16,655 nucleotides of DNA from a virus (taxonomy: Duplodnaviria > Heunggongvirae > Uroviricota > Caudoviricetes). Within the stretch, counting starts at the first letter, position 1, and each line of letters starts with the position of its first letter. Made by a program: the position numbers and the translations under genes. This document shows, piece by piece, positions 2,899-9,890 of this stretch. The notes beneath the pieces were generated by a model, which saw only the letters and a list, made by a program, of their open reading frames with translations, did no database searches and was not told the DNA's origin. The stretch spans positions 1 through 16,655 of IMG/VR virus record IMGVR_UViG_2698536647_000004. The stretch is one strand, 5' to 3'.

Positions 2899-2925
2899 AT
2901 CACACCTTTCATCACTGATTGGGCT

Positions 2926-3105
2926 TTATCTGCTGCCCGGCATTCTCTGTTTAAGCACAACCATTTCCTGACGGCATAACACAGCAATAGCGGTCCTGGC
3001 ACCAATTTGCTTACCAACCAGGTATTGCTTTACCTTGCGGCGACTCACGCCATCAAGAAGCATCTTTAACGCTTCACGGGACAATTTGTTGTATTTGCGT
3101 GCCAT
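2926..3105 (-). CDS. Small basic protein (59 aa) apparently translationally coupled to doc; positionally like P1 pdcB
   Basis: ATG at 3105 lies 4 nt after the doc stop with GGAG 7 nt upstream. Translation MARKYNKLSREALKMLLDGVSRRKVKQYLVGKQIGARTAIAVLCRQEMVVLKQRMPGSR. The longer ORF to 3126 would overlap doc. Confidence 0.45.
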   Translation of the reverse strand: MARKYNKLSREALKMLLDGVSRRKVKQYLVGKQIGARTAIAVLCRQEMVVLKQRMPGSR

Positions 3106-3109
3106 TAAT

Positions 3110-3490
3110 CTACTCCGCAGAACCATACAATCTACGTAACGTGTCGGCGACAGAAGATACAGATATCTCTCCGGTCGCAGCCCCTACGGTAAGGTCTGCC
3201 AGTTCAGGTGAATCAAATACCTGCACCCCGTTACGGCGTAGAAATAACAGCGCACTGTTTAGCGCGGTACGCTTATTGGCATCATTGAATATATGCCCTC
3301 TCGCTGTAGCCACCAGGTAGGTGGCGGAGACTTCGAAAAGGTCGGTGATCTCTTCGTAGGCAACTCTGGCCTGAACTCTCCCGATAATGGCCTCTGCCCT
3401 ACCCGGATCTGACATTCCCGGCAGGCCGCCGTAGCGGTTTATATTCGCATCATGAAGCGCAATAAGTTCTTCCGGTGATATATGCCTCAT
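3110..3490 (-). CDS. doc: Doc toxin (Fic/Doc family kinase) of the phd-doc addiction module
   Basis: 126 aa starting [16 protein letters not shown], with the Fic/Doc motif HIFNDANKR. Closely resembles P1 Doc from memory. Its start overlaps the phd stop (TAATG). Confidence 0.95.
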
Positions 3491-3711
3491 TATCGGTTAA
3501 CCAGTTCCTTGTTGGTGGAGTCCAGGGTGTCAAACAGGGATGCAAATTCAGCATCCAGCGCCGCTTTTTTGTAGGCTTCGAAAGTAGCCTTGCTGACAAT
3601 TACTGCTGGCTCACGGCCTCTGCGGGTGATTTCAACCTCTTCCCCGGCCTCAACATTGTTGAGCACTTCAGAAAGGTTGCCGCGCGCGGTACGGAAGTTA
3701 ATGGATTGCAT
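3490..3711 (-). CDS. phd: Phd antitoxin (prevent-host-death)
   Basis: 73 aa, [49 protein letters not shown]..., matching P1 Phd from memory. RBS GAGGT upstream of the ATG at 3711. Confidence 0.95.
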
Positions 3712-3760
3712 AAATACCTCGTGTACTCGTTATGTGTACACAATTATAAACTTCACAGGC
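3712..3760 (-). promoter_or_regulatory. phd-doc promoter with palindromic operator half-sites
   Basis: On the minus strand a perfect TATAAT (plus 3743-3748) is followed by the palindrome TGTGTACACA (3733-3742) and GAGTACAC (3721-3729). The P1 phd-doc operon is autoregulated through palindromic operator sites overlapping its promoter. Confidence 0.6.
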
Positions 3761-3887
3761 ATAAAGCACCAGCACTTTGCGGCTTAACAAACCTCTAGGC
3801 AGGTCATTCGTAGCCTAATGTCCGAACTGCTAAAGCATCCAAGTTGCTGTAGAATCACCGCCAATTACATAAGCCTGAAATAAGTGG

Positions 3888-5450
3888 ATGAAAATGACAA
3901 GTATTCAACAACGTGCAGAGCTTCATCGTCAAATCTGGCAAATTGCTAACGATGTCAGGGGTTCGGTCGATGGATGGGATTTTAAGCAATACGTTCTGGG
4001 CGCACTTTTCTACCGTTTTATCAGCGAAAATTTTTCCAGCTATATTGAAGCCGGTGATGACAGTATCTGTTATGCGAAACTGGATGACAGCGTAATTACT
4101 GATGACATTAAAGACGATGCCATCAAAACTAAAGGCTACTTCATCTACCCCAGTCAGCTTTTCTGCAACGTAGCGGCGAAAGCAAATACCAATGACAGAC
4201 TGAATGCAGATTTAAACAGCATCTTCGTTGCTATCGAAAGTTCTGCTTACGGTTATCCTTCAGAAGCTGACATCAAAGGTTTGTTTGCTGATTTCGATAC
4301 CACCAGTAACCGCCTGGGTAACACCGTTAAGGATAAAAATGCCCGCCTGGCTGCGGTTCTGAAAGGGGTTGAAGGGTTAAAACTTGGTGACTTCAACGAA
4401 CATCAGATTGACCTGTTCGGTGATGCCTATGAGTTCCTGATCTCTAACTATGCGGCAAATGCCGGTAAGTCAGGCGGCGAGTTCTTTACACCGCAGCACG
4501 TCTCTAAGCTGATTGCACAACTGGCTATGCACGGGCAGACCAACGTTAACAAAATCTACGACCCGGCAGCGGGTTCCGGCTCACTGTTGTTGCAGGCGAA
4601 AAAACAGTTTGATAACCACATCATCGAAGAAGGCTTTTTCGGTCAGGAAATCAACCATACGACCTATAACCTGGCGCGTATGAACATGTTTTTGCACAAT
4701 ATCAACTACGACAAGTTTGATATCAAGCTGGGTAATACACTGACTGAGCCGCACTTCAGAGATGAAAAACCGTTTGATGCCATCGTTTCTAACCCGCCGT
4801 ATTCGGTGAAATGGATTGGCAGCGATGACCCGACGCTGATTAACGATGAACGTTTTGCCCCGGCTGGCGTTCTGGCCCCCAAATCCAAAGCTGACTTTGC
4901 GTTTGTATTACATGCGCTGAACTATCTTTCGGCCAAAGGTCGCGCTGCGATTGTCTGCTTCCCGGGCATTTTTTACCGTGGCGGCGCGGAGCAGAAAATC
5001 CGTCAGTATCTGGTCGATAATAACTATGTCGAAACCGTAATTTCACTGGCTCCGAACCTGTTCTTTGGCACCACCATTGCCGTAAACATTCTGGTTCTGT
5101 CTAAACATAAAACGGATACCAACGTTCAGTTTATTGACGCCAGCGAACTGTTCAAAAAAGAGACTAACAACAATATCCTGACCGATGCCCATATCGAACA
5201 GATTATGCAGGTATTTGCCAGCAAGGAAGATGTTGCTCATCTGGCGAAATCTGTTGCGTTTGAGACTGTTGTCGCGAATGACTATAACCTGTCGGTGAGC
5301 AGCTATGTGGAAGCGAAAGATACTCGCGAAATTATCGATATCGCTGAGCTGAATGCTGAGCTGAAAACCACGGTCAGCAAAATCGACCAGTTGCGCAAAG
5401 ATATTGATGCGATTGTGGCTGAAATTGAAGGCTGCGAGGTGCAGAAATGA
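3888..5450 (+). CDS. hsdM: Type I restriction-modification N6-adenine DNA methyltransferase subunit HsdM (type IC, EcoR124-like)
   Basis: 520 aa with the AdoMet motif [10 protein letters not shown] and the catalytic NPPY motif (SNPPYS). It overlaps hsdS by 4 nt (ATGA). Confidence 0.97.
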
Positions 5451-6652
5451 GCGAGATGAGTTATCTGGAAAAATTGCTGGATGGGGTTGAGGTTGAGTGG
5501 AAGACACTTGGGCAAACTTGCAAAATTGAAACAGGAAAGCTTAATGCGAATGCGGCTGTTGATGATGGAGAGTATATGTTCTTCACGACAGCCAAAGAGA
5601 CAAGCAAAATTGATAAATTCCGCTGGGATACAGAGGCATTGCTGATTGCAGGCAATGCGAATGTTGGTGAGGTGAAGCATTACATCGGCAAGTTTGAGGC
5701 TTATCAGCGCACCTATGTTCTGACAAATTTCGACGAAAATGTAAGTGTTAGATTTTTGTATTTTGTGCTTAGCCATAGCCTGAAGAAATATCTCGAGGAA
5801 AGAACAAATAGCGCGGCAATGACATATATCGTGCTATCAACCTTAGAGAATTTCCCTATCCCCATCCCCTGCCCGGATAATCCGGAAAAATCCCTTGCCA
5901 TCCAGTCTGAAATCGTTCGGATTCTGGATAAATTTACTGCACTTACCGCTGAGCTTACCGCTGAGCTTAACATGCGTAAAAAACAGTACAACTACTATCG
6001 CGACCAGTTGTTGAGTTTTAAAGATGGTGAGGTTGAGTGGAAGACTTTGGGGGAAATTGGAGATTTTACATATGGATATGCAGCCAAAGCCATGGATTCA
6101 GGAGATGCCCGTTTCGTGAGAATTACTGACATAAATAAAGACGGGAAGCTATCGAAAGAAAACCCAATGTACGTTGAATTAAATGAGGAAAATGAGAAAT
6201 ATACCTTAGACAAAAATGATTTACTCATGGCAAGAACTGGGGCAACCTTTGGTAAAACAATGATTTTTGAAGAAGATTATCCAGCAGTATACGCTGGTTT
6301 TTTAATAAAGTTGAACCTAAATAAAACGATTATTAATGCCAAATATTACTGGCACTTTGCACAAAGTGATTTTTTTTGGGAACAGGCTAATAAATTAGTA
6401 TCTGGTGGTGGGCAACCACAGTTTAATGCTAATGCACTGAAACAAGTCAGAGTACCTATTCCATACCCATCTCACCCTCAAAAATCTTTAGACGAACAGG
6501 GGCGTATTGTGGATATTCTGGATAAGTTTGATGCAATCGCAGCTTCCATCACCGAAGGTCTTCCGCGTGAAATCGAGTTGCGCCAGAAACAATACGAATA
6601 CTACCGTGATTTACTGTTCAGTTTCCCGAAACCTGAAACTGCCAGTAATTAA
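5447..6652 (+). CDS. hsdS: Type I restriction-modification specificity subunit HsdS with two target-recognition domains
   Basis: 401 aa. Conserved central repeat region ([26 protein letters not shown]) and the matching C-terminal conserved region ([18 protein letters not shown]). The N-terminal motif VEVEWKTLG is repeated at the start of TRD2 (GEVEWKTLG). Confidence 0.95.
5944..5967 (+). repeat. Perfect 2 x 12-bp tandem repeat (TACCGCTGAGCT) encoding TAEL-TAEL in the HsdS central spacer region
   Basis: Direct read: 5944-5955 equals 5956-5967, preceded by a degenerate copy encoding TAL. In type IC systems the copy number of this repeat sets the spacer length of the recognition site (two copies in EcoR124I, three in EcoR124II, as I recall). 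Confidence 0.85.
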
Positions 6653-6679
6653 TTGATCATTGCTACCGATCGGACCACC

Positions 6680-6745
6680 TTAACACCCGGTCAGTATATA
6701 GACTATTTTTTACGCGCCGGAAGTCACCATTACCCCCCTTCCGGC
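6680..6745 (+). promoter_or_regulatory. Candidate hsdR promoter (TTAACA 6680-6685, TATATA 6695-6700 region) and a leader stem-loop (GCCGGAAG 6716-6723 / CTTCCGGC 6738-6745)
   Basis: Type IC hsdR is known to have its own promoter separate from hsdMS. The hexamers are weak; the 8-bp inverted repeat with a 14-nt loop is read directly from the sequence. Confidence 0.35.
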
Positions 6746-6773
6746 CCTTGCCAGACGGCACAAAGGATGCGCT

Positions 6774-9700
6774 ATGACTCATCAGACACACACCATTGCT
6801 GAATCCAATAACTTTATCGTTCTTGATAAGTACATCAAAGCTGAGCCAACAGGCGACAGCTACCAGAGCGAATCGGACCTGGAACGTGAACTGATTCAGG
6901 ACCTGCAAAATCAGGGTTATGAATTTATTTCCGTAAAATCACAGTCGGCAATGCTGTCCAATGTTCGGGAACAGCTTCAGAGCCTCAATGGTGTGATGTT
7001 TAATGACAGCGAGTGGCGGCGCTTCACGGAGCAGTATCTGGACAACCCCAGCGATGGTATTCTGGATAAAACCCGTAAAATCCATATCGACTATATCTGC
7101 GACTTTATTTTTGATGACGGGCGACTTGAGAACATCTATTTGATAGATAAAAAGAATCTCATGCGCAATAAGGTGCAGATTATCCAGCAGTTTGAACAGA
7201 CGGGTTCTCATGCTAACCGTTATGACGTCACGATCCTGGTTAATGGTTTACCGCTGGTGCAAATCGAACTAAAAAAACGCGGGGTGGCGATTCGTGAGGC
7301 TTTCAACCAGATACATCGTTACAGTAAAGAGAGTTTTAACAGCGAAAATTCCCTGTTTAAGTATCTGCAACTGTTTGTCATTTCTAACGGCACCGATACC
7401 CGTTATTTTGCCAACACGACAAAGCGCGATAAAAACAGTTTTGACTTCACCATGAATTGGGCGAAATCAGACAACACGCTGATTAAAGACCTCAAAGACT
7501 TTACCGCTACCTTTTTCCAGAAACATACTCTGCTGAATGTTCTGGTGAACTACAGCGTTTTTGACAGTAGTCAGACGCTACTGGTGATGCGACCGTACCA
7601 GATTGCCGCCACCGAGCGCATTCTGTGGAAAATTAAGAGTTCCTTTACAGCGAAGAACTGGTCAAAACCGGAAAGCGGTGGGTATATCTGGCACACTACC
7701 GGTTCTGGTAAAACCCTCACCAGCTTTAAAGCCGCGCGTCTGGCAACAGAGCTGGACTTTATTGATAAAGTCTTCTTTGTGGTCGACAGGAAAGACCTCG
7801 ATTACCAGACCATGAAGGAATATCAGCGTTTTTCGCCAGACAGCGTCAACGGCTCGGAAAATACCGCAGGCCTTAAACGAAATCTGGATAAGGACGATAA
7901 CAAAATTATCGTCACTACTATTCAGAAACTCAATAACCTGATGAAAGCAGAAAGCGACCTGCCTGTATATAATCAGCAAGTGGTGTTTATATTTGATGAA
8001 TGCCACCGCAGCCAGTTTGGAGAAGCGCAGAAAAACCTGAAGAAGAAATTCAAACGCTATTATCAGTTTGGTTTTACCGGCACACCTATTTTCCCGGAAA
8101 ACGCCTTAGGCTCAGAAACGACCGCCAGCGTATTTGGTCGTGAATTGCATTCGTATGTAATTACCGATGCGATTCGTGATGAAAAAGTGCTCAAATTCAA
8201 GGTGGACTACAACGATGTGCGGCCACAGTTTAAGTCTTTAGAGACAGAAACTGACGAGAAAAAACTAAGTGCGGCTGAAAATCAGCAGGCGTTTCTTCAT
8301 CCCATGCGTATACAGGAAATTACGCAATATATTCTGAATAACTTCCGCCAGAAGACGCACCGTACTTTCCCTGGCGCAAAAGGTTTTAATGCTATGTTGG
8401 CAGTGAGCAGCGTGGATGCTGCAAAAGCCTATTACGCGGCGTTTAAACGGTTACAAGAGGAAGCCGCTAATAAATCTGCAACTTATAAACCGCTGCGTGT
8501 TGCGACAATCTTCTCCTTTGCCGCTAATGAAGAACAAAATGCCATTGGTGAAATTTCCGATGAAACTTTTGATACCAGCGCAATGGACAGCAGTGCTAAA
8601 GAGTTTCTTGACGCTGCAATTCGTGAGTATAACAGCTATTTTAAAACTAACTTCAGCACCGACGGTAACGGTTTTCAGAACTACTATCGCGATTTAGCCC
8701 AACGGGTTAAAAATCAGGATATCGATCTGTTAATTGTCGTTGGGATGTTTTTAACCGGCTTCGACGCTCCAACATTGAACACGCTATTCGTCGATAAAAA
8801 CTTGCGTTTTCACGGCCTGATGCAGGCATTTTCCCGCACCAACCGCATTTATAACGCCACTAAAACCTTCGGTAACATTGTCACTTTTCGGGATCTGGAA
8901 CGCTCAACCATTGATGCCATAACGCTGTTTGGTGATAAAAATACCAAAAATGTGGTGTTAGAAAAGAGTTATGCAGAGTATATGGAAGGTTTTACTGATG
9001 CTGCCACCGGTGAAGCCAAACGCGGCTTTATGGCAGTAGTTTCAGAACTGGAACAACGGTTCCCTGACCCTGCCAGTATTGAAAGTGAAAAAGAGAAGAA
9101 AGACTTCGTTAAACTGTTTGGCGAATACCTGCGTGCCGAGAACATCCTGCAAAACTATGATGAATTTGCCACGCTAAAAGCCCTGCAACAAATCGATCTT
9201 AGCGATCCTGTTGCGGTAGAAAAATTCAAAGCAGAACATTATGTGGATGATGAAAAGTTCGCTGAATTGCAAACAATTCGTCTCCCTGCTGAACGCAAGA
9301 TTCAGGATTATCGTTCTGCCTATAACGATATTCGCGACTGGCAGCGCCGTGAGAAAGAAGCTGAGAAAAAAGAGAAATCAACCACTGACTGGGATGACGT
9401 GGTTTTTGAGGTCGATTTGCTGAAGTCTCAGGAAATAAACCTGGATTATATCCTTGGACTGATTTTCGAACACAACAGACAAAATAAAGGCAAGGGCGAA
9501 ATGATCGAAGAGGTCAAACGCTTAATTCGTTCAAGCCTGGGGAACCGGGCGAAAGAGGGCCTGATGGTCGATTTTATTCAGCAAACGAACCTGGATGATT
9601 TACCAGACAAAGCCAGTATCATTGAGGCATTCTTTACGTTTGCTCAACGCGAACAGCAACGTGAAGCAGAAGCATTGATAAAAGAAGAAAATCTCAATGA

Positions 9701-9890
9701 AGATGCAGCAAAACGCTATATTCGCACGTCTTTAAAACGCGAATACGCCACCGAAAATGGCACAGAATTAAACGAAACATTACCAAAACTTAGTCCGTTG
9801 AATCCGCAATATAAAACGAAAAAACAGGCAGTTTTCCAGAAAATCGTCTCGTTTATTGAGAAGTTTAAAGGCGTAGGCGGAAAAATATAG
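6774..9890 (+). CDS. hsdR: Type I restriction enzyme R subunit HsdR (type IC; same 1038-aa length I recall for EcoR124I HsdR)
   Basis: PD-(D/E)xK-type nuclease motif in the N-terminal domain ([19 protein letters not shown]), helicase Walker A TGSGKT and a DECH box ([10 protein letters not shown]). RBS AAGGATG before the ATG at 6774. Confidence 0.97.

Follow-up and report, generated by a model that had tools for sequence, protein, structure and literature searches.

The AT-rich second target-recognition domain of a type IC HsdS on a P7/P1-like phage-plasmid is very probably an exchanged cassette with the base composition usual for its family

The results presented here make it very probable that the AT-rich segment at positions 6040-6480 of the window (the whole 16,655-nt stretch of viral DNA that was analysed, to which all positions refer unless another record is named) is the second target-recognition domain (TRD2) of an EcoR124-family specificity protein, HsdS, carried by a P7/P1-like phage-plasmid; that this domain is a cassette bounded by conserved regions; and that it is AT-rich in the way that is usual for TRDs of the family. 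The evidence comprises the assignment of the system to the type IC family, the positions at which hsdS alleles diverge and become identical again, and the base composition of TRDs and conserved regions in the window and in relatives from other hosts.

The segment lies in hsdS (5447-6652, + strand; 401 aa; Pfam Methylase_S, 5e-38), which encodes the specificity subunit of a type IC system, and falls within the second Methylase_S domain of the protein. Upstream is hsdM (3888-5450, + strand; 520 aa; Pfam N6_Mtase, 6e-121, plus HsdM_N), the stop codon of which overlaps the hsdS start codon in an ATGA at 5447-5450 that can be read directly from the sequence; downstream, after an intergenic region (6653-6773, + strand), is hsdR (6774-9890, + strand; 1038 aa; Pfam EcoR124_C, T1R_D3-like, SWI2_SNF2 and HSDR_N). 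The neighbours of the operon are doc (3110-3490, − strand), a DUF968 gene, a gene for a PNKP-phosphatase-like protein and P1-type pmg genes. The region is identical to that of the P7-like phage-plasmid pMCR_SCKP-LL83 (MF510496), which has the same flanking genes and a 100% identical hsdS: that is, the same allele, with no difference. Among plasmid records hsdS is 100% identical in about 25, and the whole gene is present in about 28. The paper on pMCR_SCKP-LL83 assigns no specificity to the hsdS allele, and a literature search for a motif or a description of the window's restriction-modification system returned only the statement 'unnamed type I RM system' and general reviews. The window's type IC system occupies the variable res/mod site of its P7/P1-like carrier.

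Alignments to proteins of known structure indicate that the system is closely related to EcoR124. HsdM aligns over its full length with the EcoR124 M protein (7BST_D; 1161 bits over 520 aa), HsdR aligns over its full length with EcoR124 HsdR (2W00_A; 2274 bits over 1038 aa), and HsdS aligns over its whole length with 7BST_A, the EcoR124 specificity protein. Three parts of HsdS (its N-terminal 18 residues, its central region and its C-terminal region) are identical or close to identical to 7BST_A; its two TRDs are not related in sequence to those of 7BST_A. In the same alignment both ends of HsdS fall within the distal conserved helix and TAEL repeats lie in its central conserved region, two features that together form the published criterion for type IC (PMC3874165). 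The first TRD (TRD1, type 'A') has no significant similarity to EcoR124 TRD1, and TRD2 (type 'X') is 22.6% identical to EcoR124I TRD2 (BLASTP, E = 0.004), a similarity at the level of the fold only. Compared with the type IC prototype, EcoR124I/EcoR124II of plasmid R124 (PDB 7BST, 2W00), the window thus has in common near-identical M and R subunits, the conserved regions of the S subunit, the gene order hsdM-hsdS-hsdR and, as in EcoR124I, two TAEL repeats; unlike in EcoR124, both TRDs are replaced and the carrier is a P7-like phage-plasmid, not R124. The type IC family was originally defined through subunit complementation or antibody cross-reaction with EcoR124I, and its members recognise bipartite, asymmetric targets and methylate adenine on both strands. 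Protein database searches with TRD2 alone and with full-length HsdS returned generic names only, and recovered no EcoDXXI, EcoprrI or REBASE-named subunits. We conclude that, as judged from these alignments, the type IC system of the window combines M and R subunits like those of EcoR124 with an S subunit that differs.

The domains of hsdS are all on the + strand. TRD1-A occupies 5501-5866, and the block that varies between alleles, as defined by breakpoints against other alleles, is approximately 5512-5857. The central conserved region (5867-6040), which encodes a dimerisation helix and is identical or nearly identical to EcoR124, acts as the left crossover zone for the TRD2 cassette; within it, at 5945-5968, are two copies of the 12-nt TAEL repeat (ACCGCTGAGCTT), identified from sequence and translation, which set the length of the spacer. 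TRD2-X, the AT-rich region, occupies 6041-6478, and the distal conserved region (6479-6649), which encodes the second dimerisation helix and the C-terminus and is near-identical to EcoR124, acts as the right crossover zone. Two pairs of internal direct repeats, also on the + strand, flank the TRDs. The first pair (86% identity; spacing 540 nt) lies just ahead of the TRDs: 5488-5516, which encodes EVEWKTLG, precedes TRD1, and 6028-6056 precedes TRD2. The second pair (77% identity; spacing 594 nt) lies behind them: 5921-5950, which encodes ILDKF, follows TRD1, and 6515-6544 follows TRD2.

Comparison of alleles shows that TRD1 and TRD2 occur in different combinations. TRD2-X DNA is present in 68 plasmid records, 58 of them at ≥98% identity and 10, from Klebsiella and Enterobacter, at 73-78%, whereas TRD1-A DNA is present in 32 plasmid records only. 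In the alleles that we fetched (locus numbers prefixed L), TRD2-X is joined to TRD1 types B (L002, L003, L005, L006), C (L004, L061), D (L007), G (L009) and H (L059), and TRD1-A is joined to four other TRD types in the second slot (L012-L015). At the protein level, the best 120 clusters at 90% identity all contain X, mostly at ≥94% identity, and the TRD1 regions of these proteins form at least 23 clusters. One of these clusters is represented by a natural hybrid, P0206 (a protein from a 7.2 kb ENA contig), which has an N-terminal half 100% identical to that of EcoR124I, with two TAEL repeats, joined to X and the window's distal region.

The positions at which alleles diverge match the conserved regions. 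Allele breakpoints flank TRD1 at 5509-5512 and 5857, and TRD2 at 6043-6060 and 6513-6544; the conserved regions in which they lie include both pairs of direct repeats (5488-5516/6028-6056; 5921-5950/6515-6544). Two comparisons define the cassette: with L002, which has zero differences from the window over 536 nt (6026-6561; chance probability approximately 1e-23, Fisher p = 6e-15), and with L007, which has zero differences over 513 nt (6026-6538; chance probability approximately 1e-14, Fisher p = 8e-10), although in both cases the flanks (adjacent conserved regions and intergenic region) differ at 5-9% of sites. Differences between alleles stop at 6025 and resume at 6539 or 6562, which defines an identical cassette of 6026-6538/6561. 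Such a pattern is what a recent transfer of the cassette from one diverged allele to another leaves behind. An Asp/Glu site at 6025 is the last position to differ before the block of identity begins: Asp (KDGEVEW) in the window, L059 and P0206, and Glu (KEGEVEW) in the other fetched X-carrying alleles (L002-L009, L060, L061) and in EcoR124. The hsdS-hsdR intergenic region (6653-6773) is just 87-93% identical between alleles with hsdR genes that are 97-99% identical, and therefore mosaicism reaches beyond hsdS.

The results bear out two elements of the original prediction: that 6040-6480 encodes the 3' TRD in a type IC hsdS gene, as shown by Pfam and by the alignment to EcoR124 HsdS, and that conserved repeat regions bound TRD2 and serve as points of TRD shuffling, as indicated by the internal repeats and the allele breakpoints. 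In natural and engineered type I hybrids (StySQ/StySJ; EcoR124I x EcoDXXI), crossovers in conserved regions between TRDs give new alleles, and TAEL copy number changes independently of TRD swaps (PMC3874165). As with those hybrids, both processes occur among the natural alleles analysed here, on evidence that is comparative only. We conclude from the allele comparisons that TRD2-X behaves as a recombination cassette that has moved among hsdS alleles via crossovers in conserved regions.

The cassette is found on chromosomes as well as on plasmids. Of 5,426 complete E. coli genomes, 92 contain X, and 52 of the places at which it occurs are chromosomal; two of the three chromosomal places that were fetched are genomic islands, one of which (L060) carries the same A + X allele on a backbone that is 95% identical. 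The occurrence of the type IC operon in E. coli chromosomal islands (L059, L060) shows that the system is exchanged between plasmids and chromosomes. In both islands the operon adjoins a GTPase-family gene and has IS1 borders, and the L059 island contains, in addition, antirestriction, DUF932 and JAB-domain genes.

Several individual alleles have unusual structures. In L014 (NZ_CP074122, pEC16-2; 1741-2931), hsdS has TRD1-A and three TAEL repeats, and its slot-2 TRD lies between additional copies of the N-terminal motif (EKLLDGVKVEWLPLS), on the upstream side, and of a central-type motif, on the downstream side; slot 2 therefore holds a slot-1-type module, apparently through domain movement or duplication. 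In L008 (NZ_CP060066; 299-2106), hsdS is interrupted by the IS5-like element ISKpn26, and the remaining ORF, a C-terminal half of 226 aa, carries only TRD2-X; for truncated type IC S subunits, homodimers that recognise palindromic targets have been reported (PMC3874165). In L013 (NZ_CP132697, K. pneumoniae p3; 2921-3975), which has TRD1-A and a different TRD2, an 'AAA family ATPase' gene directly follows hsdS in the place of hsdR, an arrangement that recalls the prrC insertion of the EcoprrI locus. A further candidate recombinant, Salmonella phage SJ1 (OQ595196; L016, 1801-4113), in which hsdS is 100% identical to the window up to 6116 and then divergent, was set aside: its hsdS is truncated, its hsdM is downstream of hsdS and IS elements are adjacent, such that the record is probably rearranged or mis-assembled.

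The base composition of TRD2 differs from that of its surroundings. The GC content of 6040-6480 is 36.7%, as compared to 46.1% for hsdM, 43.6% for hsdR, 41.5-42.4% for TRD1 (depending on boundaries), 43.6% for the central conserved region, 44.0% for the distal conserved region and 46.5% for the whole window. The interval is within the lowest 1% of all 441-nt segments of the window, all 441-nt segments with ≤39% GC begin at 5875-6221 and overlap it, and the lowest value over 200 nt is 31.5%, at 6200-6399. The GC content along hsdS is therefore not uniform, and the prediction that the 3' TRD is more AT-rich than hsdM and the 5' TRD is correct, as is the estimate by eye of about 35% GC for 6280-6420, for which the computed value is 34.8%. 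A maximum-likelihood two-breakpoint fit to the GC content of third codon positions (GC3) yields a low block at 6053-6490, with GC3 of 0.274 inside and 0.478 outside, coincident with TRD2. The block that varies between alleles, which starts at approximately 6043, extends slightly further 3' than the predicted end at 6480, to approximately 6513-6544.

The GC deficit is almost entirely at third codon positions, where changes are synonymous. TRD2 (6041-6478; GC 0.365) has GC1, GC2 and GC3 values of 0.469, 0.338 and 0.290-0.295, as compared to GC3 values of 0.451-0.456 for TRD1 and 0.526 for hsdM. When the TRD2 protein was re-coded 20,000 times with the codon usage of hsdM plus hsdR, the expected GC content was 0.450 +/- 0.014 (z = -6.2 for the observed 0.365) and the expected GC3 was 0.50 (z = -5.3 for the observed 0.295), and the observed values were reached in none of the 20,000 simulations. 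TRD1 and both conserved regions match the codon usage of the operon (|z| ≤ 1.4). We conclude that the composition of TRD2 deviates from that of the surrounding genes beyond what its amino acids explain.

It is highly improbable that the AT-richness results from amino-acid content (Lys, Asn, Ile, Phe, Tyr), from decay of a non-functional domain or from an embedded regulatory element. The TRD2 protein is indeed rich in K, N, F and Y, but GC1 and GC2 are as elsewhere in hsdS and GC3 alone falls, and the codon-aware simulation rules out amino-acid composition as the cause. Pseudogene decay is ruled out by the ratio dN/dS, which for TRD2 is 0.08 against a 76%-identical variant, X' (L010), and 0.10 against a 98.4%-identical variant (L009), and by the intact hsdS ORF, which is identical in dozens of records. 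One promoter-like match and one terminator-like match lie inside the TRD2 region, but a promoter and terminator scan of 5400-6900 gave counts no higher than in shuffled sequence; the same holds for one promoter-like match in the hsdS-hsdR intergenic region (6680-6709), which is no more than shuffled sequence gives. Alternative ORFs in 6000-6560 are all short and all overlap hsdS, and none is plausible.

The original prediction read the AT-richness as a sign that TRD2 had been acquired from another source. To place the composition in context we compared the distinct TRD alleles of the fetched type IC genes. GC3 is ≤0.36 in 11 of these 15 TRDs (median GC3 0.33, median GC 0.39), and the conserved regions of the fetched alleles have GC3 of approximately 0.4-0.59. 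The composition of TRD2-X is thus typical of the sampled TRDs, and it is TRD1-A, with an operon-like GC3 of 0.45, that is among the few exceptions.

The same pattern is observed in distant hosts. Relatives of X at 70-78% protein identity are found in Marinomonas, Acinetobacter, Alteromonas, Endozoicomonas, Bacteroidales, Bacillus, Porphyromonas and Lentisphaerae. Nine of them have a full-length hsdS, in which the type IC architecture includes TAEL-type repeats and YYRD helices and the second slot is filled by an X-like TRD; E. coli alleles share some of their TRD1 types. In these nine genes, from hosts of several phyla and with two loci closely related, mean GC3 is 0.26 for both TRD1 and TRD2, as compared to 0.41 (central) and 0.34 (distal) for the conserved regions, and the contrast between TRDs and conserved regions holds even in hosts of 31-38% GC. 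TRD GC and the GC of the flanking host DNA are correlated over 29 relatives (r = 0.89), and in 24 of these the TRD has the lower value. All but one of the relatives of X at ≥70% protein identity fall in the range of 0.31-0.40 for TRD GC; the remaining one, in a Bacteroidales MAG with 54% GC flanks, has 0.47. Type IC hsdS genes of Acinetobacter, Marinomonas, Alteromonas, Bacteroidales, Bacillus and others have the same domain order as the window, but their conserved regions are more diverged and their repeat units can differ: two Acinetobacter loci (L019, L020) have two to three tandem copies of SDEIGRDRTR between the central helix and TRD2, and an Endozoicomonas locus (L022) has four copies of TELT in place of TAEL. 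The SDEIGRDRTR and TELT repeats are possible extra spacers of variable length.

It is unlikely that an enterobacterial type IC hsdS recently imported TRD2 from a donor of low GC content and that the foreign composition has not yet drifted to that of the host. Such an import would account for the deviation of TRD2 codon usage from the rest of the operon, and low-GC flanks surround the closest relatives outside Enterobacteriaceae plasmids, which share 70-78% protein identity and come from Acinetobacter, Marinomonas, Alteromonas, Bacteroidales, Porphyromonas and Bacillus. However, we found no close donor, the best relative outside Enterobacteriaceae plasmids being 78% identical in protein; most other TRDs of the family are equally AT-rich; and X is widespread, with a variant 76% identical in nucleotide sequence on similarly diverged Enterobacter and Klebsiella backbones, which implies long residence. 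This variant, X' (L010, on an Enterobacter plasmid), is also AT-rich, and is seen at approximately 77% identity in several Klebsiella pneumoniae plasmids. X' is about as diverged from X as its backbone is from that of the window (76% vs. approximately 83% for hsdR and backbone), and X has therefore probably been long resident in enterobacterial type IC genes; the divergence of X' fits long residence in the family but fits independent imports equally.

The reading of TRD2 as acquired from another source because it is AT-rich is not supported, because most TRDs of the family are AT-rich, with the same contrast in nine hosts, and because no donor was found for a cassette that is common in Enterobacteriaceae, as the counts of 68 plasmid records and 92 E. 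coli genomes attest. We infer from these sequence comparisons that X probably belongs to a cross-phylum pool of TRDs centred on low-GC hosts, for which AT-richness would be the family norm.

The contrast could instead, or in addition, be made by the conserved regions: these would be kept GC-richer across hosts, by homogenisation, GC-biased repair or codon and structural constraints, and the low GC of the TRDs would be the family baseline. The difference in mean GC3 between the central conserved region and the TRDs of the nine hosts (0.41 vs. 0.26) agrees with this proposal, as does the finding that in seven of these hosts the central region is GC-richer than the local flank, including Acinetobacter and Bacteroidales hosts at 36-38%. 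We nevertheless consider the proposal rather unlikely: the nine-locus sample is small and partly non-independent, the effect is less clear in the distal conserved region (mean GC3 0.34), and the conserved regions of the window simply match the codon usage of hsdM and hsdR. Whether the GC3 contrast is a general, cross-phylum property of type IC hsdS genes, even in low-GC hosts, is a related matter, and an affirmative answer seems to us doubtful, as does, separately, the proposal that the X half-site is a specificity not yet on record. If the contrast were general, some process would keep the recombining helix-coding regions GC-richer or the TRDs AT-rich, and candidate processes are GC-biased repair at recombination tracts and continual re-seeding of TRDs from a low-GC pool. 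For the window, we retain the reading of TRD2-X as an exchanged cassette with the AT-richness usual for TRDs of the family.

The replacement of both TRDs bears on recognition specificity. The known type IC targets are GAA N6 RTCG, GAA N7 RTCG, TCA N7 RTTC and CCA N7 RTGC. Since TRD2-X has only fold-level similarity to EcoR124I TRD2, a half-site other than RTCG is likely. The suggestion that the half-site may differ from those of the characterised type IC enzymes is thus likely to hold, on the basis of sequence divergence, with respect to EcoR124I, the TRD2 of the window not being that known TRD; with respect to other enzymes, the X half-site may already be known. The target of the window's system should, given this divergence, differ from GAA N6 RTCG. 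The natural hybrid P0206 would be a convenient handle for the X half-site, the EcoR124I TRD1 that it carries reading GAA.

The gap between half-sites is expected to vary among alleles that share TRD2-X. TAEL repeat number sets the length of the gap in the target (PMC3874165): two repeats give the gap of EcoR124I, and three give the gap of EcoR124II, EcoDXXI and EcoprrI (Loenen et al. review, PMC3874165). Alleles with TRD2-X have one TAEL repeat in P0238 and P0239, two in the window and three in L009, L059 and L061. The alleles with one or three repeats therefore imply gap-length variants of the same half-site pairs.

By analogy with EcoR124I (PMC3874165; 7BST and related structures), one HsdS and two HsdM subunits would form the methyltransferase (M2S1), and addition of HsdR would give the endonuclease (R2M2S1). 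According to this model, each TRD would read one half of the bipartite target, TRD1-A the 5' half-site and TRD2-X the 3' half-site, and the two-TAEL helix would fix the spacing between half-sites as in EcoR124I, such that the predicted target is the TRD1-A half-site, a gap and the TRD2-X half-site. The allele comparisons show that homologous crossovers in the two flanking conserved, helix-coding regions move TRD2-X between alleles, which would generate new specificities. The AT-richness of TRD2-X would reflect long membership of a shared, horizontally exchanged pool of TRDs, the closest members of which sit in low-GC bacteria of several phyla, and not a recent import peculiar to this plasmid.

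The mechanism is a known one and not new: the window carries an uncharacterised allele of a well-known kind. The allele travels on P7/P1-like phage-plasmids, some with mcr-1, and on E. coli chromosomal islands, and its target sequence helps to decide what DNA those hosts accept. The system provides a natural example of how reassortment of TRDs, together with changes in TAEL copy number, yields many specificities from one EcoR124-type set of M and R subunits.
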